Shown here one piece after another: positions 4,552-51,200 of a stretch of DNA of 64,000 nucleotides. The DNA is from an uncultured virus (IMG/VR IMGVR_UViG_3300029305_010146) (lineage: Duplodnaviria > Heunggongvirae > Uroviricota > Caudoviricetes). Under the pieces are notes generated by a model, which saw nothing but the letters and a program-made list of their open reading frames with translations, made no database searches and was not told the origin of the DNA. Location: IMG/VR virus record IMGVR_UViG_3300029305_010146; one strand, written 5' to 3'. The position numbers and the translations under genes were made by a program. Position 1 is the first letter of the stretch. Each line of letters starts with the position of its first letter.

Positions 4552-5208
4552 ATGCAGACTAAATTAAGAAATATTATGTCTTCTAAAAAGGGTTTCACCC
4601 TCATTGAATTGCTCGTAGTTATCGGTATCCTTGCCGTTCTCGCTGCAATCGCAATTCCTTCCGTTGCTGGTCTTATCGACAGAGCAAATGTTTCTGCTGA
4701 CAAGACAAATGCTAACGAAATGACCAATGCCATCGAGCGCTTTACTTCCGAGTATGAGCTTTACTGCCAGGATATCGCTTCTGGTTGGAATGGCACCAAC
4801 CCAGACTCCGCACAGGGTCGTGTTAAGAATGTAATCGGTGCTACTACACGTGACCAGATTACCACTCTCGAAATTGCACAGGGTACAGACATTGATGCCT
4901 CCAAACTTCAGTTGTATAGAGACACCAAGTATCCTACCAACGAAAAGACTCTTGTAGAACTCGTGAAGAATTACACAAAGACTTCTTCCGCTACTTTCCA
5001 GCCAAAGCAGTCTGACTGCCACTTCTTCTACTCTCCAAAATGCGGTCTCGTTGTTGTTGCAGAGGCAGATTCTACTATTGCTCAACTCAACGACCTCGTA
5101 ATCTCTGGTATGGATGCAAAGGGTAATGCTCTTGATGACAACGACAAGAAACTTTGGATTGATATCTCTGATGCCGACACCACCAAGTATGTTGAGAAAA
5201 CTGCTTAA
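4552..5208 (+). CDS. Type IV pilin (probable major pilin, copy A)
   Basis: Class III signal KKG|FTLIELLVVIGILAVLAAIAIP. SD AAGGAG. Downstream terminator at ~5238-5266. Confidence 0.93.
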   Translation: MQTKLRNIMSSKKGFTLIELLVVIGILAVLAAIAIPSVAGLIDRANVSADKTNANEMTNAIERFTSEYELYCQDIASGWNGTNPDSAQGRVKNVIGATTRDQITTLEIAQGTDIDASKLQLYRDTKYPTNEKTLVELVKNYTKTSSATFQPKQSDCHFFYSPKCGLVVVAEADSTIAQLNDLVISGMDAKGNALDDNDKKLWIDISDADTTKYVEKTA

Positions 5209-6641: not shown

Positions 6642-7568
6642 ATGAAGATTAATATTAAGGAAATCACATCAAAGGTAAACGGCGAAAGTGTTTCTGGTGT
6701 CGTTTATGTCAAAAATGCAAACATCAATGTTGCAAAAAATGGCAAGAAGTACATCCAAGGTCTTCTAATTGACAATAAGGAAAGTATTTTCTACAAGGTC
6801 TGGGGAGACTATATGGAAGCATTCCAAAAGGTTAATGCGACATCGCAAATTCTCTACATCGAAGGTACCGTAAATGTATTTAACGATACAACTTCTATCG
6901 TAATCACAAAGGCAATGCCTTCTAATGAAGGTTTGACCCCTGCCGATTTCATTACTGGTCACGACAGAGATGCCCTTGAAAGAGAATTCTACGAAATCAA
7001 TAAGCGTCTTCTGTCCCCTAATGCTTACGACATTTTGAATGTTATTGTTAGAGATAAAGTTAAAGACCGTTTCTTCATGGAATATGCTGGCATGACAATG
7101 CACGATGCTTGCCCCAGCGGTGTAGCAAATCACACCGTTAAAATGCTTCGCATTCTTGAGACAATCATCAATAACGACCCTCGCCTCACACCGTGGACAG
7201 ACCTTTTGGTTCTTGGTGTTGATTTGCACGATGTCGGCAAAATTAAGGAAATGTACAATGGAAACTATCGCAAAAACTCCTTTGTTACACACAGAGAATT
7301 TGGAGTTGAATTACTGATGAATAACAAGGACTTTATTATATCTCAATTCAATGACGATTTCTATTATCGTCTTGTTTCCATTATTCGTGGGCATCACGAT
7401 GAATTTGAGGAAAAGGCAAAGACTGTATATGCATATATCACTTTTTTGATTGATATGCTTGATTCTCAAGTTTCTCATATTCTGGATTGTGTCGAAGCAG
7501 AAAATCTCAAAGAAGAATCTTCTGGCGACAGTTATATCCAATCTCACGACCACAAGTTGTATGTATAA
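6642..7568 (+). CDS. yhaM: YhaM/Cbf1-like 3'-5' exoribonuclease (OB fold + HD domain)
   Basis: N-terminal OB-like 'AKNGKKYI...KVW'. HD motifs MHDA...NHT, LHDVGKIKE, GHH and IDMLDS. Confidence 0.82.
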   Translation: MKINIKEITSKVNGESVSGVVYVKNANINVAKNGKKYIQGLLIDNKESIFYKVWGDYMEAFQKVNATSQILYIEGTVNVFNDTTSIVITKAMPSNEGLTPADFITGHDRDALEREFYEINKRLLSPNAYDILNVIVRDKVKDRFFMEYAGMTMHDACPSGVANHTVKMLRILETIINNDPRLTPWTDLLVLGVDLHDVGKIKEMYNGNYRKNSFVTHREFGVELLMNNKDFIISQFNDDFYYRLVSIIRGHHDEFEEKAKTVYAYITFLIDMLDSQVSHILDCVEAENLKEESSGDSYIQSHDHKLYV

Positions 7569-7615
7569 AAAATGCGGGAGAAAATCTCCCGCATACCAAA
7601 ATATAGGAGGTTATT

Positions 7616-8440
7616 ATGGCAAATAAAAAAGATTCATTGGGCGATAGAATGAAGTCCAATTACGAAAATAGAGCAAAAACTTATCTCGTTCGCAGACAAC
7701 CTGTAATTCTGCGACTTGACGGTAAGGCTTTCCACACTTTTACAAGAGGATTAAAGAGACCTTACGATGAAATCTTTCACAAGGCAATGAACGATACACT
7801 TATGACCCTTTGTGAAAATATTCAAGGTTGCAAAGTTGGTTATACACAGTCTGACGAAATTACCCTTCTTTTGACTGATTATGATACCCTAACTACCGAT
7901 GCTTGGTTTGACTATGCAGTGCAGAAAATGTGTAGTATCGCCGCTTCAACGGCAACCCTCGCATTCAATAAATCCCTCGCAAAAAGTGTTGATGACTTTT
8001 TCAATACCAAAATTTCTGGTGTTGAAGAGTTGTCTGCTGATAGCGAAGACTTTAAGTATTTCAAGACCCTTATGAAGGCAGTAAATACTGGTGCGATGTT
8101 TGATTGCCGTTGTTTCAATATTCCAAAAGAAGAGGTCGTAAACTGTTTCATTTGGAGACAGCAAGATGCAACAAGGAATGCAATTCAAATGCTTGGTCAG
8201 TGTAATTTTTCACACAAAGACCTAAATGGCAAATCTTGCAATGACATTCAAGATATGCTGATGGTGCAAAGAGGAATTAACTTTAACGATATGCCAACCG
8301 AATTTAAGAGAGGAGTCTGTTGTGTTCGCACAGAACAAGTATCAACTAACAGCACTACTCCTACGAGGATGAAGTGGACTATCGACAAAGAAATTCCAAT
8401 TTTTTCAAAAGATTTCAACTATATTGAAAAATATATTTAA
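7616..8440 (+). CDS. thg1: tRNA(His) guanylyltransferase Thg1-like protein
   Basis: RLDGKAFHTFT, YTQSDEITL, FDCR, WRQQDATRNAI and FKRG motifs. Confidence 0.93.
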   Translation: MANKKDSLGDRMKSNYENRAKTYLVRRQPVILRLDGKAFHTFTRGLKRPYDEIFHKAMNDTLMTLCENIQGCKVGYTQSDEITLLLTDYDTLTTDAWFDYAVQKMCSIAASTATLAFNKSLAKSVDDFFNTKISGVEELSADSEDFKYFKTLMKAVNTGAMFDCRCFNIPKEEVVNCFIWRQQDATRNAIQMLGQCNFSHKDLNGKSCNDIQDMLMVQRGINFNDMPTEFKRGVCCVRTEQVSTNSTTPTRMKWTIDKEIPIFSKDFNYIEKYI

Positions 8441-8506: not shown

Positions 8507-8583
8507 GCGGGTGTAGTGTTTAACGGCCAGCATGCCTGCCTTCCAAGCAGGAGGTACGGGTTCGAATCCCGTTACTCGCTCCA
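8507..8583 (+). tRNA. tRNA-Gly(TCC)
   Basis: Cloverleaf; anticodon arm CCTGC-CTTCCAA-GCAGG; GGTTCGAATCC; encoded CCA. Confidence 0.95.
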
Positions 8584-8602
8584 AAAATTTTTTTAAAAAG
8601 TC

Positions 8603-8631
8603 TTGACAATTAGATTTTTTTATGTTATAAT
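8603..8631 (+). promoter_or_regulatory. Sigma-A-type promoter for the tRNA-Met/leader/tRNA array unit
   Basis: TTGACA-N17-TATAAT with extended -10 TG. Confidence 0.85.
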
Positions 8632-8638
8632 ACCATAT

Positions 8639-8714
8639 AGCGGGATAGAGCAGGTGGTAGCTCGTTTGGCTCATATCCAAAAGGTCGTTGGTTCGACTCC
8701 AACTCCCGCAACCA
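8639..8714 (+). tRNA. tRNA-Met(CAT), initiator-like
   Basis: CAT anticodon; unpaired A1:A72 and A11:U24 initiator features; CCA end. Confidence 0.88.
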
Positions 8715-8761
8715 GTGACGAAAGTCGCATATTAAATCTTGACAGAAAGGAAGTATTCAGT

Positions 8762-8869
8762 ATGACTGTTTACAATGCAATTCAAAAAATTCAACAGTGT
8801 AAACAAGTAGGCATGTTTAAGTTTATTAAACGTGTCCATTCGTCATGCCATGAATACAACCACTGTTAA
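8762..8869 (+). CDS. Putative 35-aa attenuator leader peptide MTVYNAIQKIQQCKQVGMFKFIKRVHSSCHEYNHC
   Basis: SD-like AAAGGAAG upstream. It lies in a structured leader before a terminator and is enriched in I/Q/K/C/V/M/F. Confidence 0.6.
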   Translation: MTVYNAIQKIQQCKQVGMFKFIKRVHSSCHEYNHC

Positions 8870-8934
8870 AGGTTACGTTCTGCCTGCAATATAAAACTGG
8901 TAGATTACGGTTAAAAATTTTTAACAAACAAGTA

Positions 8935-8976
8935 GCGGTTCTGTATCCATGGGATGCAGAACCGTTTTCTTTTTTT
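8935..8976 (+). terminator. Intrinsic terminator (candidate attenuator) immediately before the tRNA array
   Basis: GCGGTTCTGTATCC-ATG-GGATGCAGAACCGT followed by a long T tract, 4 nt before tRNA-Gln. Confidence 0.85.
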
Positions 8977-8980
8977 ACAT

Positions 8981-9056
8981 TGGGGTATCGCCAAGCGGTA
9001 AGGCACAGGACTTTGACTCCTGCATTCCGAAGGTTCGAATCCTTCTACCCCAGCCA
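8981..9056 (+). tRNA. tRNA-Gln(TTG)
   Basis: CAGGA-CTTTGAC-TCCTG arm; CCA end. Confidence 0.95.
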
Positions 9057-9061
9057 TATAT

Positions 9062-9137
9062 GCACCTGTAGCTCAGTTGGAAGAGCACTCGACTTTTAAT
9101 CGAGGAGTCATGGGTTCGAGTCCCATCAGGTGCACCA
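9062..9137 (+). tRNA. tRNA-Lys(TTT)
   Basis: CTCGA-CTTTTAA-TCGAG arm; CCA end. Confidence 0.95.
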
Positions 9138-9142
9138 AATAT

Positions 9143-9218
9143 GGAAAGGTAGCTCAACAGGTAGAGCAGTGGACTGAAAATCCACGTGTAGTCGGTTCGA
9201 CTCCGTCCCTTTCCACCA
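9143..9218 (+). tRNA. tRNA-Phe(GAA)
   Basis: GTGGA-CTGAAAA-TCCAC arm; CCA end. Confidence 0.95.
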
Positions 9219-9221
9219 TAT

Positions 9222-9295
9222 GGCGATGTCGTCAAGTGGTAAGACAGCAGTCTGCAAAACTGTTACCCCCAGTTCGAATCTGGGCATCGCCTCCA
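9222..9295 (+). tRNA. tRNA-Cys(GCA)
   Basis: GCAGT-CTGCAAA-ACTGT arm; U73 discriminator; CCA end. Confidence 0.93.
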
Positions 9296-9301
9296 CTCTA
9301 T

Positions 9302-9377
9302 GCATTCGTAGCTCAACTGGGAGAGCACTCGACTCTTAATCGAGGGGTCGTGGGTTCAAACCCCACCGAATGCACCA
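9302..9377 (+). tRNA. tRNA-Lys(CTT)
   Basis: CTCGA-CTCTTAA-TCGAG arm; CCA end. Confidence 0.95.
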
Positions 9378-9382
9378 AATAT

Positions 9383-9459
9383 ACACTCGTAGTTCAGTTG
9401 GTTAGAATACTTGCTTGACATGCAGGGGGTCGTTGGTTCAAGTCCAATCGAGTGTACCA
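9383..9459 (+). tRNA. tRNA-Val(GAC)
   Basis: CTTGC-TTGACAT-GCAGG arm; ACACTCG/CGAGTGT acceptor; CCA end. Confidence 0.92.
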
Positions 9460-9465
9460 TTATCT

Positions 9466-9541
9466 GCGACATTAGCTCAGTTGGCAGAGCACCGTGCTGA
9501 TAACGCGGGGGTCACTGGTTCAAGTCCAGTATGTCGCACCA
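9466..9541 (+). tRNA. tRNA-Ile(GAT)
   Basis: CCGTG-CTGATAA-CGCGG arm; CCA end. Confidence 0.94.
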
Positions 9542-9545
9542 ACAT

Positions 9546-9621
9546 GCAATATTAGCTCAGTAGGTAGAGCACCGTGCTGATAACGCGGGGGTCGTTGGTT
9601 CAAATCCAGCATATTGCACCA
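9546..9621 (+). tRNA. tRNA-Ile(GAT), second copy
   Basis: Same anticodon arm as 9466-9541 with a different acceptor stem (GCAATAT/ATATTGC); CCA end. Confidence 0.93.
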
Positions 9622-9697
9622 GCACCATTAACTCAACTGGTAGAGTGCTTCCCTTACAAGGAAGAAGTTATAGGTTCGAGTCCTATATGGTGTACCA
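9622..9697 (+). tRNA. tRNA-Val(TAC)
   Basis: CTTCC-CTTACAA-GGAAG arm; abuts the previous tRNA; CCA end. Confidence 0.93.
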
Positions 9698-9702
9698 TAT
9701 AT

Positions 9703-9778
9703 GCCACGGTAACTCAGTTGGTAGAGTATCGGCCTCATATTCCGAAAGTCAGCAGTTCGAACCTGCTCCGTGGTACCA
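9703..9778 (+). tRNA. tRNA with CAT anticodon (elongator Met or Ile2)
   Basis: TCGGC-CTCATAT-TCCGA arm; paired 1:72; CCA end. Confidence 0.88.
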
Positions 9779-9782
9779 ACTT

Positions 9783-9858
9783 GGGAAGATAGCAAAGATG
9801 GTCTATGCAACGGACTGAAAATCCGAGGATACTGGTTCGATACCAGTTCTTCCCACCA
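9783..9858 (+). tRNA. tRNA-Phe(GAA), divergent second copy
   Basis: CGGA-CTGAAAA-TCCG arm; GGGAAGA/TCTTCCC acceptor; CCA end. Confidence 0.88.
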
Positions 9859-11445: not shown

Positions 11446-12468
11446 ATGAAAGATATTATCCAAAGACCAGAATATGACTTTTTCAGAACAAATCCCGACA
11501 TTTGTGATAAGGTTTTATTGCTGACATATGGCGGAAGTATCGCCTATGGCACAAACAATGAAAATTCCGATACCGATATCCGTGGTGTTTGTCTCAACAG
11601 AAAAGAAGATATTCTCGGTTTCAACGAAATGCACCAGTTCGAACAATTTATTGACCCAATAACCGATACTGTAATTTATTCTTTGAATAAATTAACAAGA
11701 TTGCTTATTTCGTGCAACCCAAACACAATTGAAATTCTTGGTTGCCGTCCCGACCATTATCACATGGTCAATAAGTACGGTCAAATGTTGCTCGACAACA
11801 AAGAATTGTTTTTATCTCAAAAAGCAGTTAATTCTTTTTCTGGTTATGCAAGACAGCAATTGGCACGTCTCGAAAATGCCTTGGCGCGAGATAGACTTGC
11901 TCAAAGCAAAAAAGAAATGCACATCCTTAATGCTTGCCAATCAACAATTGACGCTTTTGAAAAAAGATATTCTTTTAACCCAGCAAAATTCATTGAACTT
12001 GTGTTGATGGACTCTGAAAAAGAAGATTTTGACAAAGAAACTTTCGTTAACGTCACTCTGCATAACGTTCCTTTGAGAGAATTTGCTGGTATGGCAGCAG
12101 ACCTTGCGAACGTTGCAAAATGTTATGATAAACTAAATCACAGAAATAGCAAAAAAGACGACAATCATCTCAACAAACATGCAATGCACCTTGTTCGTCT
12201 TTATTTGATGGGCATTGATATCTTGGAAAAGGCTCAAATCGTAACCTATCGTGCCGACGACATTCCTGAATTGATGGGTATTCGTAACGGAAAATATCAA
12301 AAAGAAGACGGAACTTATTACGATGAATTTTTTGAAATGGTCAACGAGTATGAAAAGCGTATCCAATATGCCGCAAAACATACTGTTTTGCCGCCTGAAC
12401 CAGACTATAAAAAGATTCACGAAATGATTTCTGAAATCAACTATCTTACTGTTGTAGATAGAATTTAA
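11446..12468 (+). CDS. Pol-beta-superfamily nucleotidyltransferase (RlaP/YcgL-like)
   Basis: GGSIAYGTNNENSDTDIRG (GS...DxD), NPNTIEIL and KHAMHLVRL motifs. Confidence 0.85.
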   Translation: MKDIIQRPEYDFFRTNPDICDKVLLLTYGGSIAYGTNNENSDTDIRGVCLNRKEDILGFNEMHQFEQFIDPITDTVIYSLNKLTRLLISCNPNTIEILGCRPDHYHMVNKYGQMLLDNKELFLSQKAVNSFSGYARQQLARLENALARDRLAQSKKEMHILNACQSTIDAFEKRYSFNPAKFIELVLMDSEKEDFDKETFVNVTLHNVPLREFAGMAADLANVAKCYDKLNHRNSKKDDNHLNKHAMHLVRLYLMGIDILEKAQIVTYRADDIPELMGIRNGKYQKEDGTYYDEFFEMVNEYEKRIQYAAKHTVLPPEPDYKKIHEMISEINYLTVVDRI

Positions 12469-13972: not shown

Positions 13973-14647
13973 ATGCAGACAAAATTAAGAAATATTATGT
14001 CTTCTAAAAAGGGTTTTACCCTTATCGAATTGCTCGTAGTTATCGGTATCCTTGCCGTTCTCGCTGCAATCGCTATCCCTTCCGTTGCTGGTCTTATCGA
14101 CAGAGCAAATGTTTCTGCTGACAAGACAAATGCTAACGAGATGACCAATGCCATCGAGCGCTTTACTTCCGAGTATGAACTCTACATTCAGGACATCAGC
14201 TCTGGTGCTCTTGATTTTGACAAGCTCGATTCTGCACAGGGTCGTGTAAAGAATGTTATTGACACTGGTGCAACCGATGAGACTTCTCGTGACGACATCA
14301 CTGCCCTCGAAATCGCGCAGGGTGGTACTGTTGACCACACCAAGGCACAGTTGTACAGAGACACCAAGTATCCTACCAACGAAAAGACTCTCGCCGAAGT
14401 TGTAAAGAACTACACAAAGACTTCTTCCGCTACTTTCCAGCCAAAGCAGTCTGACTGCCACTTCTTCTACTCTCCAAAATGCGGTCTCGTTGTTGTTGCA
14501 GAGGCAGATTCTACTATTGCTCAACTCAACGACCTCGTAATCTCTGGTATGGATGCAAAGGGTAATGCTCTTTCCGACACTGACACAACTCTTTGGATTG
14601 ACATCTCTGATGCTGCTACTGACACTTATGTCACAAAAACTGCTTAA
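13973..14647 (+). CDS. Type IV pilin (probable major pilin, copy B)
   Basis: First ~70 aa identical to 4552-5208; class III signal; duplicated upstream region. Confidence 0.93.
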   Translation: MQTKLRNIMSSKKGFTLIELLVVIGILAVLAAIAIPSVAGLIDRANVSADKTNANEMTNAIERFTSEYELYIQDISSGALDFDKLDSAQGRVKNVIDTGATDETSRDDITALEIAQGGTVDHTKAQLYRDTKYPTNEKTLAEVVKNYTKTSSATFQPKQSDCHFFYSPKCGLVVVAEADSTIAQLNDLVISGMDAKGNALSDTDTTLWIDISDAATDTYVTKTA

Positions 14648-16827: not shown

Positions 16828-17880
16828 ACACTTCTCGTAAGAGAGTGATTGGTAGTCACCACCAAGTTCGAAAGAACATAATGCGCTTCGGCGGTCTGCT
16901 GGGAACAGACGTGAATATCGCTGGAAACAGCGATTGTTTTTGTCTGCGGAAACAAAGGCAAAAACCTATGTCGCTTTAAGCGACAAATGTTCGCAACGGT
17001 CTCGTCCGCAAGGATGCTGCCAAGTACGAGCAAACTTGCTCGAAAGAGCAATTGATAAGTTCTCGCAAGAGTTAAACTTATCCAGATGTCTTTTAACCGA
17101 CATCTCGCTACCTTCGGTAGCAAAAAAGAGTTTCGATTTCAAAACTCTGTTCTCTTACAGAAGGTGTGAAAACACCTGTCGTGTTTAACACTCGATGTTT
17201 TAGAACGAAGCGATTTGCAGAAATCGGTTTTGTACAAACCAGCGGAAATCTCCATTCCACTACCCAAGTTCATTTTTGCGACGGCGAAACAGAACATAGC
17301 AAATTCTGATGAACAACGGAGAAAAATCATAAAACAATTGCCGTTAATGTTCAGTTTTATGTTGTATTAAAAACTCGGTGCAGAGAACCTTTGTCGGGTT
17401 GCCGAGGCATATTGAATGATGTGTTGCTTCTGATAAGGATTACTTTTTAGGGGACAACATCCGAAGTGCAGCGATGCAGTTCGGAAAGACGGAAACCGTC
17501 AATATCAAGATATGTCGCTCTCTCTTTTCGCTAACAAACACACAGTTCTTGTGGCGACAACAATTGACGCTCTCGGTGAGAGAATAAACCTGCAAGTGTC
17601 GTGGTGGAACACGGTAGACTACAGGAAATCCAAAACAATGTCGTTTGCAGTGAAGCGAAGAAATTCGCGTATAACACAAGTTTATGGTCAAAGTAGCCCA
17701 ATGCAACAATTAAAGAAATTAAGTATTTAATTATTCAAATTAAAAAATTCTTTGAATTATAAAAACTTGCCGAAAGATGGGTGAAATGTGCGAGTAATCA
17801 GTCTCGTATGAGCATTATGGAACTTCGGTTCAAGACAAATAGCCAAGGGTCGCTCCCAAACGCTCGGATTTGCCTTCTCA
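16828..17880 (+). ncRNA. Large structured ncRNA, GOLLD-like (tentative)
   Basis: No credible ORF; GC higher than flanks; many GNRA/UUCG-capped hairpins. The 3' blocks (GGTGAAA...GAGTAATCAGTCTCG, AGCCAAGGGTCGCTCCC) resemble GOLLD as I recall it; unverified. Confidence 0.6.
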
Positions 17881-17964
17881 TTAGTGTAATATGTTAGAAG
17901 TTAAGAGATAGTAAGATGAAAGTCTTCTAATACAACATAAAACTGAACATTAGCATCAAAAAGC

Positions 17965-20525: not shown

Positions 20526-21221
20526 ATGGAATTTCTTTTTATTTGTTTTGTAATATTTATTATAGTTTTTTCGATTGTATCATCGAAGGCGAATAAGAAG
20601 AATCAAAATAAATATCGTGATTATCCACCAGTACCCCCCATAAATAATCAGGGTTTTAATAGACAAATGCCTGAATATATGGTCAAAAATCAAATCACAA
20701 AAGAAAATCCCAATTTTTCCGAAGATAATTTCAAAAGATATGTGGAAATGGTTTACATCAAATACTTATCTTCTATTATGAAGAGAGACCCTTCTGATGT
20801 GAAAGATTTATTACATGAGGAACTATATAATACTCACGAAAATTACATTGACACTATTCGCATAGCAAAACGAAATATTCATATTGAAAACATCATTGTT
20901 AATAGTATCGCCTTTTTAGAACACAAAACAGTAAATAATGTAGAAACTGTAAAAGTTCATGTAAAAAGCAAAATGAACGAATACGAAACAGATGACAACA
21001 ATATGATTATCAGTGGTTACCGTTCGCGTATTGTTTCCAAAGACGATGTCCTTACATTCCAAAGAGACTATAATTCATTATACGATAAGGCTATTGTTTG
21101 CCAAAACTGTGGTGCAAGTTTATCATCTGTTGCCAAAAGTTGTGATTACTGTGGTACAGTTGTTAAATTTAACGACAAAACAAACTCTGGCTGGAAACTT
21201 TGCGATGTAACGACACTGTAA
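20526..21221 (+). CDS. Tim44-like domain protein with N-terminal TM and C-terminal zinc ribbon
   Basis: 'NPNFSEDNF...Y' and 'SKMNEYETD...ISG...DVLTFQR' segments; CQNCGA...CDYCG. Confidence 0.75.
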   Translation: MEFLFICFVIFIIVFSIVSSKANKKNQNKYRDYPPVPPINNQGFNRQMPEYMVKNQITKENPNFSEDNFKRYVEMVYIKYLSSIMKRDPSDVKDLLHEELYNTHENYIDTIRIAKRNIHIENIIVNSIAFLEHKTVNNVETVKVHVKSKMNEYETDDNNMIISGYRSRIVSKDDVLTFQRDYNSLYDKAIVCQNCGASLSSVAKSCDYCGTVVKFNDKTNSGWKLCDVTTL

Positions 21222-21384
21222 GACACAATATTCCGCACGCGATGCACTCATATTTAATGTGTGGAAACAAATTGAATATGAAATTGCATCCGAACAATAC
21301 TATTTCTGAAATACAAAAACTGCGGAGCAATTCGCAGTTTTTTCTTTGATAGTATAACTGATTTCGACAGGAGGTCGATTACAT

Positions 21385-22812
21385 ATGTTTTTCAAAACAA
21401 TTTTTATTTATGTGTTGAATGTATATAAGTTTTTACGAAAGAGACTTAATGACTTTTCAACATCGCTTATAACAAAAGGTTTAAGCATAACTAAAATACC
21501 CCGTGTGATAACAGAATCAATTTGTACTTTTTTCGGAGAACATTTCCGCTTGGAAAAGAAAAAATTTTTAGTTTCTGTAATCTCATTTATTCTTATTTTG
21601 TCAACATTGATTGCTACAGGGTCTATCTCAAAAGTTGCTATTTATATTAACGGCGAAAAAATTGGTTATGTCGAAAATGAAGACGAGGCCGTACAAATTA
21701 TCGAAGAATACAACGATTTTGCAAACGAAAATTATGGTAAAACAGACATTATTTTGCAAAACGAAATTTCACTTTCTCAAAGTCTTTTGAGTAGCGGGGA
21801 CCTACAAAATACAATCGATGGTGTTAAAAACGAAGAATTCACAAATGCATACATGCTTTATTTTGACGATGCATTGATTGCTGTTACAGAATCGCCAGAT
21901 GTTTTAAGAAATGTTATTTCCCAAATCGAAAGTGATGTAACTGCTCTTTTGGGCAATAATGCCTCTATTTACAATAGCATTCAAATTAAAAACGAATTTT
22001 ATCCAACAAGTCAATTAAGTGACCCAACAAAATTATATTCAACAATCGTTGGTGTTGATACAATCACGAGAAATCTTATCACACCATCCGTCATTTTATC
22101 TGACAATAACGAACCAATTAAACTATATTCGTTGAATGGTATTTTATTTGAGACTTATGAATATTACAAAGTGGAAAGATTCTTAAAATCCGAAACAGTC
22201 TTCAAAAATGATGATACGATGTATAAGGGTTCTCAAAAACTCGTTACCGTTGGCAATGACGGTGCCGCAATCGATTTTTATAAGAGAACAATCTTTGAGG
22301 GTGAAGTACAAAACACTGAACTTATTGATACAAATATTACTACCGCCAAAGTTGACACGACTATCTTAACTGGAACAAAAGAAATTAACTGGAAAGAAGA
22401 CCCCAAAGTTCTTTTATTCCCACTCGGTACAAACAATTTCAGATACAGTTCAGAATTTGGTGGTAGAAGCGACCCATTCACTGGTGAATATGCTTACCAT
22501 AGTGGTATTGACCTTGGTTGTGCTTCTGGAACTTCCGTGCTTGCCGCTGATAGTGGCATCGTAGTCACTTCCACAAACTCTGACGGCAGTGCTGGTATTT
22601 ATATTTCTATCTTGCACGACAATGGTCTTACAACCACCTATATGCACTTATCCAAGCGTTTAGTAAAGGTTGGAGACAGAGTATATGCTGGTCAGCAAAT
22701 CGCCTTAAGTGGCAACACAGGTCGTTCTACGGGACCTCACTTACACTTCACAGTCCTTGATGTGAATGGTAACTTGGTTAACCCAAGAAGATTTACCCAA
22801 TTTCCAAAATAA
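21385..22812 (+). CDS. M23 peptidase with G5 domain (cell-wall endopeptidase)
   Basis: HSGID, YMHLS and STGPHLHF zinc motifs; G5-like 'DDTMYKGSQKLVTVGNDG'; N-terminal TM. Confidence 0.92.
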   Translation: MFFKTIFIYVLNVYKFLRKRLNDFSTSLITKGLSITKIPRVITESICTFFGEHFRLEKKKFLVSVISFILILSTLIATGSISKVAIYINGEKIGYVENEDEAVQIIEEYNDFANENYGKTDIILQNEISLSQSLLSSGDLQNTIDGVKNEEFTNAYMLYFDDALIAVTESPDVLRNVISQIESDVTALLGNNASIYNSIQIKNEFYPTSQLSDPTKLYSTIVGVDTITRNLITPSVILSDNNEPIKLYSLNGILFETYEYYKVERFLKSETVFKNDDTMYKGSQKLVTVGNDGAAIDFYKRTIFEGEVQNTELIDTNITTAKVDTTILTGTKEINWKEDPKVLLFPLGTNNFRYSSEFGGRSDPFTGEYAYHSGIDLGCASGTSVLAADSGIVVTSTNSDGSAGIYISILHDNGLTTTYMHLSKRLVKVGDRVYAGQQIALSGNTGRSTGPHLHFTVLDVNGNLVNPRRFTQFPK

Positions 22813-22909
22813 CATTAAATCCGAGACAATATTGTCTCGGATTTTTTCATTGACAAGAAAAAAAAATCATTTATGCTATGTTTAATACAAATGAAAGGAA
22901 TGATTTTTC

Positions 22910-24190
22910 ATGAAATTACTTAAACCAAAAGCGGGTTTTACTTTGATTGAATTACTTGTTGTCATTGGTATTTTGGCAGTTCTTGCTGCTATTGCAATTC
23001 CTTCCGTTGCTGGTTTGATTGACAGAGCAAATGTCTCTGCTGATAAAACAAATGCCAATGAAATGACAAATGCAATCGAGAGATTTGCATCAGAGTACGA
23101 ACTCTATTGCCAAGACATTGCTTCTGGTGCATTAGACCCAGATAATTTGGACAGTGCACAAGGTAGAGTTAAAAATGTAGTTGGTGTAACAACTCGTGCT
23201 GGTATTGAAGATTTGGAAATCGGTCAAGGCGAAACAGTAGCAGATGATGTGGTTGCTATTTACCGTGATACCAAATATCCAGTTAATGCAACAACTATGA
23301 AAAAGGTAGTTGAAAACTACACCAAAACCAGTTCTTCTACTTTTGAACCAAAGCAAAGCGATATGCACTATTGGTATTCACCAGATTGTGGTGTAGTTGT
23401 ATTTGCCGAACCAGATGCTGATGCAGTTAATGACCTCAATAGTCAAATTCAATCTGGTCAAGATGCAAAAGGTAATGACCTTGGTTCTACAACACAGTGG
23501 ATTGACCTCACTCTTGGCGCTACTTTAAGTGGCGGTGCTTCTCTTGATATGTCCACTGTCGATTCAACTCTTGCTAATAATGACTGGGCAACAATCAAAG
23601 CAGTCATCCAAGCAGGTAAAGTTTCTGATGCTGGTTGGAAATCAGGAGACTTAACTCCAAGTTTCACAATTAACGGTAACACAAGACAAGCAAGAATTGT
23701 AGATATCAATAGTAATAAAGTTACATTTATGCTTACGTCAAGCATTGGAACCCACAATATGAATACTCTTGAGACCAACACTGGTGGTTATGCTGATTCT
23801 CAAATGAAAGTATGGTTGGATGGAGAAGTATATAATAATCTCGATGCAGATTTAAAAGCAGTGATTAGTTCTACAACTATTACTTGTGCTGACGGTTATA
23901 ATAGTCCTAATGGCACAAAGAGCACAACTTGTTATTTATTCTTACCTTCCATTAAAGAAGTTGGTCTTAATGACGATATTTCAAGTTGGTATTCATATAT
24001 GACTGCAATTGAAGCAGAAGGCGAAACATTTGATTATTTCGCCGAAAGTGGTTACATTGACGATTGGTTCTGGCTTCGTTCGCCTTATTCTTACAATGAC
24101 GACCATTTTTTCCTTTTCTACTATGGCGTTAACGACTGTTACGGTGCTTGCGATGGCAACTCTGTTTACCCCGCCTTCGTTATTGGTTAA
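22910..24190 (+). CDS. Type IV pilin fused to a DUF6273-like (CLec-type) C-terminal domain; putative DGR target
   Basis: G|FTLIELLVVI pilin module homologous to 4552/13973. The C-terminus has FLPSIKEV...WFWLRSP...VYPAF and a 35-codon NNY run. Confidence 0.85.
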   Translation: MKLLKPKAGFTLIELLVVIGILAVLAAIAIPSVAGLIDRANVSADKTNANEMTNAIERFASEYELYCQDIASGALDPDNLDSAQGRVKNVVGVTTRAGIEDLEIGQGETVADDVVAIYRDTKYPVNATTMKKVVENYTKTSSSTFEPKQSDMHYWYSPDCGVVVFAEPDADAVNDLNSQIQSGQDAKGNDLGSTTQWIDLTLGATLSGGASLDMSTVDSTLANNDWATIKAVIQAGKVSDAGWKSGDLTPSFTINGNTRQARIVDINSNKVTFMLTSSIGTHNMNTLETNTGGYADSQMKVWLDGEVYNNLDADLKAVISSTTITCADGYNSPNGTKSTTCYLFLPSIKEVGLNDDISSWYSYMTAIEAEGETFDYFAESGYIDDWFWLRSPYSYNDDHFFLFYYGVNDCYGACDGNSVYPAFVIG

Positions 24191-24206
24191 TTAAATTATT
24201 ACAACA

Positions 24207-24243
24207 AAATACCCATTGTCTCAATGTGAGACAATGGGTATTT
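24207..24243. terminator. Perfect 17-bp hairpin (bidirectional terminator / possible DGR target hairpin)
   Basis: AAATACCCATTGTCTCA-ATG-TGAGACAATGGGTATTT between convergent genes. Confidence 0.8.
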
Positions 24244-24252
24244 ATTTTTATT

Positions 24253-27200
24253 TTATTCAGTTCTTAACGCCTCTACTGGGTCTTTCTTTGCCGCCATACG
24301 AGATGGGAATAGACCAGCAATCAAGGTAAGTCCGATACTCAACAATACAAGCAAGTATCCATACCAAGGCAATACTGCAGTCAAAGACGAAATTCCTGTG
24401 ATACTTTGTGCAATCAAACTTACTGGGATACACAACAGCACCGTAGTAACAATACCTACAAGACCCGCAAGGAAACCAACAATCATCGTTTCCGCATTAA
24501 ATACACGAGAAACATCCTTCTTGGAAGCACCAATGGCACGAAGGATACCGATTTCCTTTGTTCTTTCAAGAACAGAAATATAAGTGATGATGCCAATCAT
24601 AATAGAAGATACTACAAGAGAGATAGACACAAAGCAAATCAATACAACAGAAATTGCGGTAATGATACTCGACACAGAAGACATAAGCATCGCCGCCATA
24701 TCGGTGTATTCGATTTTATTTTCTTCAGCAGCATTTGCATTGTAGTCATCAATCATATCTGCGATTTTATCTTTCATCTCAAAGTTAATCGGATAAATAT
24801 AGATAAAGTCTGGGTCTGTAATGTCGGTTGTTCCGAGCATTTTTAGAACTTCACTTTGTGTTTTGTCGGATGCCTTATCTGGCATATGGTTGTCGTAGAA
24901 ATAGATATAGTCTTCATTAGTTGCATCCGCCAAATACTTTTCAAATGCAGTGACAACTTTTGCATTTTTATCTGCCACCGAAGTCATACCACTATATTGT
25001 GCATACAACTGTGTTGCGTTTTCTACAATGGTTTGTTCGAATACTTTATTGAATTGTTCTGCAGACATTGCTGAAAGCACTGCCATTGCACTTTGCATAT
25101 CCATACCAGTTTTTGTTGCCCATTTTTGTGCTACAAAACCAATATCGATTTGCTGTTTCATCATCGTTGCCTGCACTTCTGGAAGATTTGTAATATCTTT
25201 ATACATTTCTGCCAAAATCATGTTTTTCATTTCTGACAATTCTTTTGCAGAAGGTTGTGCATAAATTTCTTTGATTGCTTTTGTCGCATTTTCTGCATAT
25301 TGTGCAACAATCATTTCTTTAACGGTTTCTCTTAAAAGTTCGATAAGTTCTTCCTTATTGTAACCGCTTAACATAGAATCAATAAGTTCTTCACTGTAAC
25401 CCAATTCATCAGCATACTGTGATTTAATATCGGCAACAATCTCTTCGACCGTCTTATCGTCATAAGAACCAAGAATTGAGTTTAATGTCTCTTCAACAAA
25501 TTTTTCATTTGGTAAAGCGAGAATTCTTTCATAGAGTTTCGCCTTTTCGTTATCAGTCAAACCGTTAACATATTCCTTAAATGCTTCAACTTTTTGTTCG
25601 TCGTTAAGTTCTTCTTCCGTTGCAATATTGAAAGGCAAACCAGTAATGATATTTGTTTCTGCATTTGCCATTTGCTGTTTTACAATTTCAGAATTAGCAA
25701 CTTGTTCTGTATAATATTCTGTCAATGCCTTTGTATAATACAAAGAACCGCCCAAGAATGGTGCAGTAGCATCAGGATTTGGTTTTACGATACCAACAAC
25801 ATTGAGTGTCATTCCTTTACTAATAATTGAATTTAACAATGCTTGATTATCAGAAATGTCAACCCATAACTTCAAAGATTCATCATATTGGTAATAATCG
25901 GTTGGAAGAACCATCTGCAATGGAATATTACAAATTTCTTCATAACTCCAAGATTTATTTTCGTATTTATCCCAACCATTATCTTCTTTGCCCATCATTG
26001 CGGCAATAGTCGCATTTACCATTGTTTCTTGGTCAACTAAACCAAGAGAGTGTAATGTAACATCAGAGATTTCGTTATTTTCGTTCAAAACAAGAAGAAT
26101 CTCATTTTTTTCTGTTGGCCATTTACCATAAACAAGGTCATACTGGTCAGTTACCAATTTACTAACTTCATAACTATTAGGGTTGGTAATGAGTTCAGAC
26201 CAAACTTTTACAGAACCAGAACTCTCTATTACAGAAGAAATACCAGACATCATTTGTCCGCCACTCATTGCACCACTCATAAGGTCTGCAAAATCTGCCT
26301 TTGCATATTTACCAGTCGGGTCTTTTGCATAAACATTAAGTTTGATGTTATAACCATATTGAACAGCATTTGAATATTCGGACAATTGGTCTTTGTTTTT
26401 ATCTAAATAAATTTTCAAATCGTGAAGGTTATTTTGAGTTTTTTCTGCATTGAGCAAACTCTTCATCATCTTAAACATTACGGGATTTCCGTAAACACCT
26501 TCTCTATTTGACTTATCTACACCATCATCCTTTGATGAAGATTCTCCCATCATTCCCTCCATCAATGCTGACATATCGGTTGATTCTTTTTCAATCTGAA
26601 TTGGAAAAGAAGATAGGGTATCTTGTTGTACGGCATCGATATAATTTTGAACACCTGTTGAGATAGCCAAAATCATTGCAATACCAATAATTCCGATACT
26701 ACCAGCGAACGATGTTAGAACCGTTCTGCCCTTTTTAGTAAGCAAGTTTTTAAAACTCAAAGACAGTGCAGTAAGGAAATTCATAGAAGTTTTCTTTGTT
26801 TTTTCCTCTCTGATTTCTTTGGTTTGCTTTTCATGATAAGGATTTGAATCGTCTGTAATTTTACCGTCAAGAATGCGAATAATACGAGAAGAATATCTCT
26901 CTGCTAATTCTGGATTATGTGTAACCATAATAACAAGTTTATCCTTCGCAATTTCCTTTAACAAATCCATAATCTGTTCGCTTGTGACAGTATCAAGTGC
27001 ACCAGTGGGTTCATCCGCCAATAAGATGTCTGGATTATTAACAAGTGCACGAGCAATTGCAACTCTCTGCATCTGTCCACCAGACATTTGATTTGGCTTC
27101 TTGTGAATTTGGTCTTCCAATCCGACTGACTTTAGTGCATCGATTGCTCTTTTTCTTCTTTCTCTTTTAGAGACACCAGAGAGAGTTAATGCAAGTTCTA

Positions 27201-27510
27201 CATTCGATAGAACAGACTGGTGTGTAATCAAGTTATAACTTTGGAATACAAAACCAACCGAGTGGTTTCTATACGAATCCCAATCTTTATCTTTATACTT
27301 TTTGGTAGAAACACCATTAATAATTAAATCACCGCTTGTATATTGGTCAAGACCGCCCACAATATTCAGTAATGTGGTTTTGCCACCACCACTTGGTCCA
27401 AGAATAGAAACAAATTCACTTTTTCTGAACTGCAAATTTACATCATCAAGAGCGAGTACATCTGAACCAGCGGTAGTATATTTTTTAGATATTTTTCTTA
27501 ACTCTAACAT
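24253..27510 (-). CDS. MacB-like fused ABC ATPase/permease
   Basis: GPSGGGKTT, MSGGQMQR, LADEPTGALD; FtsX-like C-terminus 'ERTKEIGILRAIGA...DPVEALR'; start MLELRK at 27510. Confidence 0.95.
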   Translation of the reverse strand: MLELRKISKKYTTAGSDVLALDDVNLQFRKSEFVSILGPSGGGKTTLLNIVGGLDQYTSGDLIINGVSTKKYKDKDWDSYRNHSVGFVFQSYNLITHQSVLSNVELALTLSGVSKRERRKRAIDALKSVGLEDQIHKKPNQMSGGQMQRVAIARALVNNPDILLADEPTGALDTVTSEQIMDLLKEIAKDKLVIMVTHNPELAERYSSRIIRILDGKITDDSNPYHEKQTKEIREEKTKKTSMNFLTALSLSFKNLLTKKGRTVLTSFAGSIGIIGIAMILAISTGVQNYIDAVQQDTLSSFPIQIEKESTDMSALMEGMMGESSSKDDGVDKSNREGVYGNPVMFKMMKSLLNAEKTQNNLHDLKIYLDKNKDQLSEYSNAVQYGYNIKLNVYAKDPTGKYAKADFADLMSGAMSGGQMMSGISSVIESSGSVKVWSELITNPNSYEVSKLVTDQYDLVYGKWPTEKNEILLVLNENNEISDVTLHSLGLVDQETMVNATIAAMMGKEDNGWDKYENKSWSYEEICNIPLQMVLPTDYYQYDESLKLWVDISDNQALLNSIISKGMTLNVVGIVKPNPDATAPFLGGSLYYTKALTEYYTEQVANSEIVKQQMANAETNIITGLPFNIATEEELNDEQKVEAFKEYVNGLTDNEKAKLYERILALPNEKFVEETLNSILGSYDDKTVEEIVADIKSQYADELGYSEELIDSMLSGYNKEELIELLRETVKEMIVAQYAENATKAIKEIYAQPSAKELSEMKNMILAEMYKDITNLPEVQATMMKQQIDIGFVAQKWATKTGMDMQSAMAVLSAMSAEQFNKVFEQTIVENATQLYAQYSGMTSVADKNAKVVTAFEKYLADATNEDYIYFYDNHMPDKASDKTQSEVLKMLGTTDITDPDFIYIYPINFEMKDKIADMIDDYNANAAEENKIEYTDMAAMLMSSVSSIITAISVVLICFVSISLVVSSIMIGIITYISVLERTKEIGILRAIGASKKDVSRVFNAETMIVGFLAGLVGIVTTVLLCIPVSLIAQSITGISSLTAVLPWYGYLLVLLSIGLTLIAGLFPSRMAAKKDPVEALRTE

Positions 27511-27662
27511 ATAATACTTCCCTTCATAGATTCTTATTGAAAATATAACACATTTTCTATGATTTGTCAATATGCTTCAGTTGTGTTACAGGGGTTGACT
27601 TTGCTATACTTTTATGTTATAATATACTAACAGTACGTTCGTATCGAAAGGAGTTTTATATT

Positions 27663-38433: not shown

Positions 38434-38634
38434 AAATTATGACAACAAACCCAAAAGAGCATCTGTTAATCAGACGCTCTTTTTTTTGCACTAATTTTAC
38501 CGTTATTAACCACCACCCTCCCATCAACCACAAACCACCCACTTTTCCTCCATAACCCACAAAAAATTAAATATGTACTACTCCCGCCAAACAACTTACA
38601 GCCCTTCATCAACTGCTCCTTAATTCACACATCT

Positions 38635-38652
38635 CCCTCCCACCCCACCCCC
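38635..38652 (-). other. Canonical G-quadruplex motif GGGGG-T-GGGG-T-GGG-A-GGG
   Basis: The plus strand reads CCCTCCCACCCCACCCCC, giving four G runs of 3 or more with 1-nt loops on the minus strand. Confidence 0.7.
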
Positions 38653-39075
38653 TCGTCATTATGTTGTAAAAGACTCTAATATATAACAACATAATCCCAT
38701 ATATAATATCGCAATATATAAAACATAAGAATAAAATAATACAAAAATATAGACACAACAACTATCTAATAATCTCCCAATATACCAATATATAAAAAAC
38801 AATTAAGAACTCGTATAATTAACGAAGAATATTAGAGGCCAATAATAAGCAAGAGTATAAGTGACTAAATAAGCAAATAAACAGAAAACCACAAATAAAG
38901 AAAAAACAATTATAGGCAAACCAATATATGCAAATAAATACTAACAACAAACAAATAATAATCTAATCAAAGTCAAAACAATACTGATAAATATCTAATA
39001 TAAAACATAAAGTACAAAACGAACTTTTATACAAATAAAAACAGAGGACACTTTAAAAGCATCCTCTGTATATTT

Positions 39076-48127: not shown

Positions 48128-48241
48128 GAACTAAAGTTAAAACCCACACATCCAAGATGTGTGGGTTTTTTCTTGATTTAACAAAAAAATTAGAATAAAA
48201 TTTATCTAAATATGACTTTTAAGAAAGGAAGTGTATTACAT

Positions 48242-51200
48242 ATGGCAAAACATCCTTTTATTGATATAAGAAATCTGCCAGATGATATGGACAAAAGGGA
48301 GGCAATCGCATCAGTACGCGAAGCAATTGGCGATATTAATGATAATCCCGATATATCCAAAATTATTTGCGAATATGATACATCTGATGGTGGCGATTCC
48401 AAGGTGTCCAACTATATTGCTATTGGTAGCAACTTCACCATTGAGACATCTAACCCTTCTACTATTGCAGATAAACTTGGCATTATCGCAGAAGTTAGAG
48501 AAGATGGACACATTGATAACGAAGACAGGATTACTTTGCGTGGCGAAGATTATTGTTCCGTAAAAGATGTAGATACAAACATAACCGCTCACTTTGGAGA
48601 TACTTCTTCTGCAATTGAAGCATTTTCTTCCGACTATAGAGACGACCATCCAATTGTTTCTACAACAAGAGATGGCGCTGTATTTTTTAGCAATGATGAT
48701 GAAAAAGTTGTATGTAGACCAGATTCCGACGGTCATTTATCTGTACAAAGAATAGATATAGTTACCGATACCGAAGATTCAAGAATTTCTGTAAGACCAG
48801 ATAGGGATGGTTCTGCTTTTGTTGTTGAATATACACATATGGATGGATATGAAACAGATATTAAAGTTGTTTCTTCTACCCTACCTTCTTTTGAAGAAAT
48901 GCTTGATAAAGGTGCCTCCTCTGTCGCTCTTGACAGTATAAGCGAAGCACATACTGCATTAGATGGCATTGGTGACAGACTTGAAAGTGTTACATCTTTT
49001 GCCGACTCTCTTGTTTCTTTTCATAAAGAAGATACTGGTGCAGATACAAAACCAGAAATTAGAATTGTTTACCATCCAGACAATGAAGATTTAAAAACTA
49101 ATGTTGTATACGGAAGAGAAACATTTGTTTTAGATTTTGACCAAAACAACCCAGATAAAGTTGATTCTATTGGTTACAGACAAGAAGATGGTGCTTTCGC
49201 TCGCTTTGACAGTCCAGAAACTTTATTCACTGCAATGGCTTCTGATTTCAGAGAAACACATTCCGATATTACAACTGGCAATGACGGTAAGATTATATAT
49301 TTTAGCAATGATACTGAAAAAATTGCTTGCAGTGTTGATAGTTCTGGTGAATTAATTCCGTTTAGAATTGATTTAACAGAAAAAGATACCGATTCTCGCA
49401 TTTCTATTACCCCAACAAAAGAAGATTCTTGTATATTTACTGAATTTGATAAAGTTGGCGATACAGATATTAGAATTAGAGCATTTGCTTCTCCTGATAC
49501 TCAAAGTTTTTCCGAAATTGTAAAAGGAGGAGACTCTTTAGAAATTGCAAGAGGCCAACTTGATATCGCTCGTGATAAAATCGATGCATCTACCGACAAG
49601 TTGCAAGTTTATACGGATTTAGCAGAATCTATATCTGAACATAGAGGTGAAAATTCTGATGCTTCTCCTCGTGTCGATGTATCTTGTTATTCAGATTCAA
49701 AAGAACCTCAAATTTCTCTTTCATGCGGAAGAGATGAAGAATATAGAATCGACTTTGACAAAAAAAATAACCCCGAAAGTGTTTCCTACAGAGTAACTGT
49801 CCGTGAAGAAAACCAAGTTGAAAGACCAAGTATCTGTTTTGATAGCAGAATAGAAGGATTCGATGTAAAAGAGTACATCGAAAGTAAAGAATTTCATGAA
49901 ATTTGTGCATCCTTCTCCGATAATGCAGATGCTTCTTGGGGAACAAGAGAATATACGGTTGGCGATAACTTCGTTTCTGTCATCGATAAAGACAGAGAAC
50001 ACCCAGAATTCAAAATTTGTACAGTTGAATTGCCAGAAAGCGAAGACGAAAAACAAGATGATACCGTTGAAAAATCGACCGTTGAAAAAATCAATGAGGC
50101 CGTTGAAAAAATCGGCGAAGTGGAAGATAAAATCGAAAAGGCTGGCGAGACTTACGACCCAGATGCTCGTCATGACCAATTTGATGTTGTTTCGTCTCTT
50201 TCACCAGAGGCGATGTCTAATTTGGAAATTAGTATAGACAAAGACGGAAATTGTGATTTTTCTGTAAGAATGCCAGAAGGTTTTGAAGGAGAGGTTTTTA
50301 AAGATGGAGAAAACTTCTTTTCCGATAAAATTGCCGATGGGGAAAAAGTTCATTCTATTGAAATAGAACGTCCTTATGCCACAAGTGCAAATGATACCGT
50401 TGTTGTTAAAATTGATTCTGGAATATCTATGCACACAAAAGATGGTGATGTTGAACGTTTTAACATACGCGAATTTGATGCTGGTTCTGGCGATTTATTG
50501 ACAAGTAGAGAATATGTCACATCCGATAAAAATCCAGATATTGTATATTGTGTTGATAAAAAAATCGTTGACATTAGACCAGACGGTAGTATGGTCGGTG
50601 TTGCACAAGTAACAGCAATACGCAACGAAGGTCACGGCATCGGTAGTATGATGCATGCTGGACATGGCAGAACCTTTAATGTAATTGACGTTCGTTCCAT
50701 TTACAATTTATTCGGTAATCCAAATCAAGTTTCTGTTGCAAGTGGTGTTTTTGATACTTCAAAAATGTCTATTCCAACAACAGATGCAAGCGGGAAACCT
50801 TTGTCTCCAACAGAAATGTCATCAAGAATAAATGATGCAATTAGAGCAGGCGATTTTGCTGCTGTTAGTTTGGAGGAAAAAGTAGAAACCATTGATAAAT
50901 CAAATGTTTCTTTTTCCGATATGTATGATAAACTCTGCAAGTATTCAGAAAATTATGGAACACTTTCTAATAATATTGCAGAAGTTTCTGAAAAAATCGC
51001 AGAAGTTAGACAAGAATTGTATGAAGCATACAGAAATCCAGATTCCACAGCACAAGAAATCAAAGACCTTAAAAGCGAACTCAAAGGTTACGAAAAAGAG
51101 TTAAATTCACTACGTAGCGAATTCGGTGGTAAATCCGAAGCAAGAGAATTTAAATTTTTTGATAGCTTTGAGCGTTTGGGAAATGCTACAAGTGAAATTC

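Follow-up and report, generated by a model that had tools for sequence, protein, structure and literature searches.

A type IV pilin-lectin fusion with a C-terminal variable region that was probably written by a diversity-generating retroelement

The pilin-lectin gene and the composition of its 3' end

The stretch of DNA considered here, 64,000 nucleotides of the IMG/VR record IMGVR_UViG_3300029305_010146 (hereafter the window), carries at positions 22910–24190 of its plus strand an open reading frame (ORF) of 426 amino acids (aa) plus stop, whose product joins a type IV pilin to a C-type-lectin-like domain and which we refer to as the pilin-lectin gene. The C-terminus of the encoded protein, which reads WFWLRSPYSYNDDHFFLFYYGVNDCYGACDGNSVYPAFVIG, is our main subject. 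A preliminary description of this DNA had proposed that it is a variable region of the type diversified by diversity-generating retroelements (DGRs).

At its N-terminus, the protein has a prepilin-type cleavage/methylation motif (aa 5–30; 22922–22999, plus strand) that was recognized by the Pfam model PF07963 (32.7 bits versus a cut-off of 21.2) as well as by the NCBIfam model TIGR02532 (29.7 versus a cut-off of 16.3). The signal, KAG/FTLIELLVV, features Gly at position −1, Phe at +1 and Glu at +5 and is followed by a hydrophobic helix, the features by which type IV pilins are recognized; matches of the N-terminal module to GspG- and PilA-type families were weak. The pilin module as a whole (aa 1–205; 22910–23524, plus strand) is modelled as a long N-terminal helix (aa 12–72) followed by an alpha/beta head and is, over aa 3–205, 67% identical to both stand-alone pilins encoded in the window (218 and 224 aa). 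Since its first 205 residues match stand-alone pilins, we regard the pilin-lectin protein as a pilin module onto which an extra domain has been grafted. The two stand-alone pilins, encoded at 4552–5208 and 13973–14647 and identical to each other in their first 70 residues, are probably the fibre subunits on which the lectin-bearing form is modelled. The same module of about 200 aa, at 70–80% identity, is fused to PF13306 (LRR_5) or PF03382 (DUF285) in a series of homologues (P0069–P0118 of the search described below); with such varied C-terminal domains on one pilin module, the fusions of pilin and adhesin seem to form a modular family.

The C-terminal domain (aa 217–426; 23558–24187, plus strand) is a member of the DUF6273 family, as PF19789 matched aa 274–425 with an E value of 1.4e-21 and 77.6 bits (gathering threshold 23.5), the match extending from profile position 6 to 170 of 172. 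An AlphaFold2 model, computed from an alignment of 65 sequences, reached a mean predicted local distance difference test score (pLDDT) of 86.7; here, the N-terminal helix (12–72) and the alpha/beta head are connected by a low-confidence linker (203–210) to the C-terminal domain, for which pLDDT amounted to 93–98 in 10-residue blocks from residue 231 onward. When the model was compared with the PDB using Foldseek, the single match at E ≤ 0.001 was the IgA peptidase of Thomasclavelia ramosa (9qa6), and Mtd was not among the PDB matches listed; the fold comparison was further extended to 48,161 chains with VIA-align. The protein is presumably built into the pilus, where its lectin-like domain would bind a glycan or cell-surface ligand. 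According to two reports (PMC10743442, PMC11792537), gut phage proteins contain DUF6273 domains that resemble C-type lectins and serve as DGR targets, the variable region lying at the DUF6273 C-terminus; examples are found in the Faecalibacterium phages Roos, Pioen, Lelie and CP11 (PMC11792537) and in the tentaclins and target2 of phages nd4/nd12 (PMC10743442). A tblastn search with aa 205–426 of the pilin-lectin protein retrieved seven phage records, including Taranis, Pioen and Roos, which align over 97% of the query at 27–29% identity.

The 3' end of the gene is set apart by its codon usage and base composition. All 35 codons from 392 to 426 (24083–24187) end in C or T, as had been pointed out in the preliminary description, versus 277 of 427 codons (0.65) gene-wide. 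The second-longest run in the gene comprises 13 codons, a run of 35 was reached in only 1 of 20,000 codon shuffles of the gene, and the other 67 window ORFs have C/T-ending runs of at most 21 codons. The gene body, which had been portrayed as rich in A-ending codons, is actually rich in T-ending ones (47% T and 30% A at third codon positions). Adenine accounts for 14.6% of the letters in 24065–24187 versus 32.0% in the gene body; this value lies at the 5e-5 quantile for 123-nt stretches on the plus strand, none of which is poorer in A. Based on this A depletion and on contig borders detailed below, we assign the variable region as templated to 24065–24187 (plus strand), from WFWLRSP to VYPAFVIG. 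Its variable core, delimited by column entropy and alignment, comprises codons 393–418 (24086–24163, plus strand), with about 20 variable codons interspersed among the fixed residues S394, F400, F401, G406 and A413. The core is followed by a conserved 3' end (24164–24190, plus strand) encoding VYPAFVIG plus stop, which includes a GC-rich patch (CCCCGCC) and whose columns are invariant in the family. This segment may be what corresponds here to the IMH, the sequence at the 3' end of DGR variable regions where homing is initiated. The window's second-longest C/T-ending run (21) belongs to an ORF of 1782 aa on the plus strand (48212–53557) for which no Pfam match was obtained at E ≤ 0.001.

Variation among relatives and a template-like sequence

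A homologue search yielded 572 proteins at E ≤ 0.001, and the family figures given in the following are derived from the best 120 of these 572. The closest 20 homologues have in common the invariant scaffold WFWLRSP.S.....FF.Y..G......A.....VYPAFVIG, with free positions in between. A W.LRS tail is present in 63 of the 120 homologues; 38 of these tails are 41 residues long and represent 35 unique sequences, in which 21 columns with an entropy above 2 bits lie between invariant scaffold columns. The high-entropy columns are dominated by S, Y, D, N and G. Residues that can be encoded by NNY codons (Y for C or T) make up 91.8% at these columns versus 81.6% in the protein bodies, and lysine is reduced to 0.5% versus 5.9%. 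Position-restricted polymorphism among homologues, on which the preliminary description had made its proposal depend, is thus present, and it occurs at fixed positions on a conserved scaffold.

To look at shorter evolutionary distances, cluster members were compared with their representatives in ten 90% clusters. Of these 21 comparisons 16 were evaluable; in clusters 3, 5 and 8 (5 comparisons) the tails carry LRT and were missed by the LRS motif, such that these proteins were counted wholly as outside the variable region. In 5 of the 16 evaluable comparisons, 14–17 of the 27–28 variable-region residues were changed. Outside the variable region, four of these five pairs differed at 5–22 of 276–464 residues, the corresponding numbers being 27 of 259 for the fifth (P0128). 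Taking the close comparisons together, differences amounted to 87 of 419 residues inside the variable region versus 256 of 8868 outside, and one 90% cluster was found to harbour four different tips.

We also aligned Logan contigs of four sequencing runs (X1, X7, X8 and X10) on positions 22900–24300 at a likeness of at least 80%. The runs containing the locus are labelled as animal faeces and gut metagenomes; X8 is a bovine-gut run that contains 0.17 of the locus's sampled words, the value for X7 being 0.60. Two X8 contigs fit the window up to position 24127 and then run on into a non-fitting continuation with a median length of 136 letters, the 30-letter consensus of which is composed of AAY codons, one GCA and one AGC. 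In the aligner's placement of this consensus on 24128–24157, its non-A letters are equal to those of the window throughout (12 of 12), while 13 of its 18 adenines are changed and 5 are kept. All 13 mismatches accordingly sit at consensus adenines, and the GCA coincides with the invariant Ala413. Among 127,942 placements in the window, that on 24128–24157 is the only one without a non-A mismatch. As it is very unlikely that a variable region would keep 18 of 18 adenines, we read the AAY-rich stretch as the template repeat of a related element.

The contigs are also informative with respect to the borders of the cassette. Two X8 contigs start to match only at 24064, and another one skips 24086–24175 to resume at 24176; these breaks are therefore taken as cassette borders. 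Homology with the contigs of relatives likewise begins at about 24059–24064. A contig of X10 that aligned only over 24059–24300 has 26 differences in all, 5 of which come without a listed position; the nine differences listed within 24083–24126 are all found at codon positions 1 or 2. Where the contigs of X7 and X10 leave parts of the gene uncovered, no conclusion can be drawn.

Origin of the variable region and rival explanations

We consider it likely that the C-terminal segment 24065–24187 is a DGR-written variable region that was templated from outside the window. This interpretation rests on the affiliation with the DUF6273 target family, the NNY run, the depletion of A, the variation in the family and the template-like stretch in X8. 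The DUF6273 assignment, the variation at fixed positions and the adenine-only differences in X8 thereby lend support to the original suggestion of a DGR-type variable region in the C-terminal domain. In mechanistic terms, a template repeat with AAY codons at the variable positions would be transcribed and reverse-transcribed, with random bases incorporated opposite template adenines, and the resulting cDNA would replace the variable region, giving rise to NNY codons on a fixed scaffold. In this way, the ligand-binding face would be rewritten on a domain that is exposed on a type IV pilus or at its tip. The template and the reverse transcriptase (RT) that wrote the variable region would be located outside the 64 kb and would have acted in trans; we lean slightly towards the view that both persist in this genome or in a resident phage.

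Several observations have to be set against this interpretation. No template repeat was detected in the 64-kb window, neither by blastn at word size 7, the type of search recommended in the preliminary description, nor by two ungapped adenine-tolerant scans. The best non-self placement, in A-rich intergenic DNA, had 27 of 130 non-A mismatches; in the scan control, the template of phage Roos was recovered at 4 non-A plus 18 A mismatches of 130, at a background of 46. RT or Avd families were matched by none of the 67 other window ORFs of at least 70 aa at E ≤ 0.001, such that the scans of the 64 kb and of the ORFs agree with the earlier statement that neither RT nor template is seen in this stretch. 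The template-like stretch of X8 is a 30-letter consensus at 0.9 agreement, with only half of the variable region represented, and stems from another sample. In 11 of the 16 evaluable close comparisons, only 0–4 residues of the variable region are changed while the rest of the protein diverges. The variable region of P0141 is that of another cluster; judged from this tip common to two clusters, cassette exchange by recombination appears to move variable regions as well.

The allele in the window itself shows no sign of ongoing diversification. The 90% cluster of the pilin-lectin protein consists of one sequence, found on 17 contigs (a contig of 678,911 bases is recorded with the identical protein), and none of the representatives among the best 120 of 572 homologues is 87–99% identical to it, which counts against turnover because variants differing in the variable region only would fall into this range. 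Contigs of X1, which may be a source sample, and of X7 have the same variable region, the X7 contig (585 letters, 23872–24300) with zero differences. The evidence thus leans against fast turnover of this allele at present, and the hypervariability attributed to the adhesin before is not apparent in this allele, with the proviso that contigs drop rare variants, so that low-level variation could be missed, and that the 17 contigs may be non-independent. An identical variable region in P0003, encoded on a 1.9-kb contig, was dropped as evidence of stability, since this protein combines the paralogues P0008 and P0001 in mosaic form: over approximately 300 N-terminal residues its per-segment identity to P0001 is the one seen for P0008, and 125 of its last 126 residues are those of P0001. 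By its sequence, P0003 would represent either recombination between paralogues of one genome or an assembly chimera.

These points could also be accommodated by assuming that the region was written by a DGR whose cognate template and RT have since disappeared from the genome, the tip now evolving by point mutation and by recombination between paralogues or strains. Such a frozen state would be in line with the failure to find template and RT in the 64 kb, with the same variable region on the 17 contigs and in X1 and X7, with the 0–4 variable-region changes in 11 of 16 close comparisons, and with the P0003 mosaic and the borrowed tip of P0141, according to which pieces are exchanged or assemblies are chimeric. 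We take this possibility seriously and yet hold it to be somewhat improbable: as an argument for recent templating, the footprint shows no decay (all 35 codons keep a final C or T, and the 12 non-A letters still agree with the template-like sequence), relatives show turnover of the variable region alone in near-identical backgrounds, and a template-like sequence exists in at least one gut sample today. One may even ask whether a retroelement was involved at all, or whether the C/T-ending run and the loops rich in Y, S, N, D and G resulted from selection on a binding surface, from codon bias or from gene conversion between paralogues. The cassette common to two clusters (P0141) would be compatible with such an origin, and neither RT nor template was found in the 64 kb. 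This explanation nonetheless leaves unaccounted for the adenine depletion at the 5e-5 quantile, the match of the AAY-rich X8 stretch at every non-A letter and the membership in DUF6273, a family that is DGR-targeted at the same place; we therefore consider it highly improbable.

A related issue is the role of the perfect 17-bp hairpin with a 3-nt loop at 24207–24243, which starts on the 17th base after the stop (16 nt in between). The preliminary description had correctly located this hairpin just 3' of the stop and had viewed it as a DGR recognition element. In favor of a target-recognition cruciform, DGR targets need a hairpin 4–34 bp past the variable region, and the one observed here (−25 kcal/mol, arms extending to 24 nt at 88% complementarity) folds far better than shuffled sequences (z −6.1; 0 of 200 shuffles fold as well). 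According to PMC3240598, however, DGR hairpins have GC-rich stems of 7–10 bp and 4-nt GRNA loops and are situated 4–34 bp after the variable region; the distance alone fits, whereas the stem has 17 pairs, only 6 of which are G-C, and the loop has 3 nt. Moreover, the hairpin is preceded by an A run and followed by a T run (24244–24258) between convergent genes, the neighbor being an ABC-FtsX gene on the minus strand (24253–27570), and a similar T-run hairpin is found at 22817–22844, where there is no variable region. A function as DGR cruciform beyond that of a terminator is thus unlikely, and the hairpin is most likely a bidirectional intrinsic terminator.

Lineage, known systems and genomic context

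The window looks chromosomal, because its proteins include SecA, RpoD, SpoVG and RecD2; a signal peptidase is encoded as well. Pilus genes are represented by a prepilin peptidase (PF01478; 59395–60171), PilM (62912–63946) and several pilins. SecA shares 40–60% identity with its relatives in genome_contigs, the best of which come from animal-gut Oscillospiraceae and Ruminococcus metagenome-assembled genomes (MAGs). Searches in the five genomes whose SecA is nearest matched no more than the N-terminal pilin helix, and two peptide patterns gave 31 pattern matches among the species representatives of genome_contigs, none of which was confirmed as a member of the gene family. The 20-base A-free 5' scaffold of the variable region, searched as an exact pattern, had 2 matches in genome_contigs (one due to chance, the other in a small DUF6273 gene of a Lachnospiraceae MAG that is unrelated), 3 high-GC chance matches in metagenome_contigs and none in viral_contigs. 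A degenerate AAY pattern was likewise without a match in viral_contigs and gave 4 low-complexity chance matches in genome_contigs, one of which (L072) was examined and is not a DGR. A pattern for the 3' end of the variable region had 0 matches in viral_contigs. In IMG/VR, 80 loci around relatives of the Roos RT contained no matching template, the best placement having 39 of 123 non-A mismatches, and these loci together with nucleotide patterns did not reveal the gene family there.

As a tentative scenario, which we regard as rather doubtful at present, an undescribed animal-gut lineage of Oscillospirales-like Clostridia would maintain a repertoire of adhesins (DUF6273, LRR_5, DUF285) on one type IV pilin module, with the DUF6273 paralogues of one genome serving as remote targets of a single, possibly phage-borne DGR. 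P0001, P0008 and P0041 have the same contig fingerprint and are read as DUF6273 paralogues of one genome. The match of X8 at all non-A letters, despite the presence of only 0.17 of the locus's words in this run, would fit an element that is more mobile or more conserved than its hosts. If the DGR were indeed phage-borne, a host pilus adhesin would be borrowing the device by which a phage diversifies its receptor-binding site.

The DGRs understood best are those acting on phage tail fibres and on a small number of surface proteins of bacteria. The targets in Faecalibacterium phages resemble the pilin-lectin protein in that they combine DUF6273, a C-terminal variable region on a W.WLRSP ... P.FV scaffold and a C-type-lectin-like fold, the latter being tentative for the pilin-lectin protein. 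They are, however, virion parts with template and RT 1–1.5 kb downstream (in the phage Roos locus L075, variable region at 5678, template at 6718 and RT at 7180–8241), whereas the variable region described here is part of a cellular type IV pilin fusion with no cassette within 64 kb. In Treponema denticola, one cassette is said to serve additional remote targets. TvpA of this organism (PDB 2y3c), like the pilin-lectin protein as envisaged here, is exposed on the bacterial surface and carries its variable region at the C-terminus in a lectin-type fold, but it is a lipoprotein of the FGE-sulfatase/DUF1566 type rather than a pilin, there is no detectable sequence relation, and its fold score was middling.

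Type V pili are built by strand exchange from components sorted as lipoproteins. Their tip adhesins are reported to be DGR-diversified in human-gut Bacteroides (bioRxiv 10.1101/2024.11.15.621889). As in our proposal, a DGR would there rewrite an adhesive pilus component of a gut bacterium; the Bacteroides pili belong to another phylum, though, and a type IV pilin carrying the signal for a prepilin peptidase forms the scaffold here. A line in a list of the DGR survey PMC11661182 names a G-type pilin domain among the rare domains that hold a variable region, and the pilin architecture class of this gene has probably been counted there before. Apart from this one-line mention, full-text searches, with the supplements of large surveys not included, turned up no account that treats a type IV pilin family as DGR target. 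Mechanism and target domain are already known; what is added is an undescribed gut lineage in which a type IV pilin displays a DUF6273 variable region.

A variable pilus tip is also known from the shufflon of IncI plasmid thin pili, where the recombinase Rci inverts DNA between repeated sfx sites on a conjugative plasmid. PilV and the pilin-lectin family are alike in that the variable part is the ligand-binding C-terminus of an adhesin related to type IV pilins. In our case, by contrast, we find the footprint of adenine mutagenesis, a chromosomal-looking context and no repeated inverted sites: none of the shufflon type occur in 21000–26000, and no window ORF matched a recombinase family. The earlier idea that the protein tunes recipient range in the manner of a shufflon is hence not supported at this locus. 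If the lectin tip of this type IV pilin is indeed DGR-written, the Bacteroides type V finding would be extended to the type IV pili of gut Clostridia, with a concrete case of programmable adhesion in an uncultured lineage. The case also shows that DGR targets can be recognized when the element is far away, the practical limit being that the enzyme and the full template are out of view and that this copy looks static.

Upstream, the pilin-lectin gene is bordered by the terminator-like hairpin at 22817–22844 (plus strand; 12 pairs followed by a T run, with 14-nt perfect arms), which ends the preceding M23-peptidase gene and thereby makes the pilin-lectin gene its own transcription unit. A promoter-like site (TTGACA, 16 nt, TATGCT; 22850–22877, plus strand) is located 33 nt 5' of the start codon, a consensus match of a kind found 7 times versus 6.3 expected in shuffles. 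The hairpins on either side of the gene, 22817–22844 and 24207–24243, have the common core ATTGTCTC / GAGACAAT, which may be due to chance or reflect a shared terminator family.

Further features of the window were noted in passing. The cluster of prepilin peptidase and PilM genes adjoins a gene (60285–61016) for a pilin-like protein with a type I dockerin (PF00404, E 1.6e-7). Between convergent pilin genes, an intergenic region of about 600 nt (38470–39075) is nearly G-free on the plus strand (GC skew down to −0.79) and then becomes very A-rich; it contains neither an ORF nor an Rfam match. An array of 13 tRNA genes occupies 8507–9855, and its flanks (6642–8437 and 11446–12465) harbour tRNA repair and maturation genes, namely an HD-domain gene, a gene for a Thg1-like tRNA-His guanylyltransferase and one for RlaP, a member of the RNA-repair polymerase-beta family. 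A full-length ROOL RNA was identified at 17350–17944 on the plus strand (RF03087; 340 bits versus a gathering score of 99), in a segment with only short ORFs lacking Pfam matches. Close to the left end of the window, the plus-strand gene at 188–1318 encodes a protein of 377 aa with a Hint / pretoxin-HINT domain at aa 213–350.

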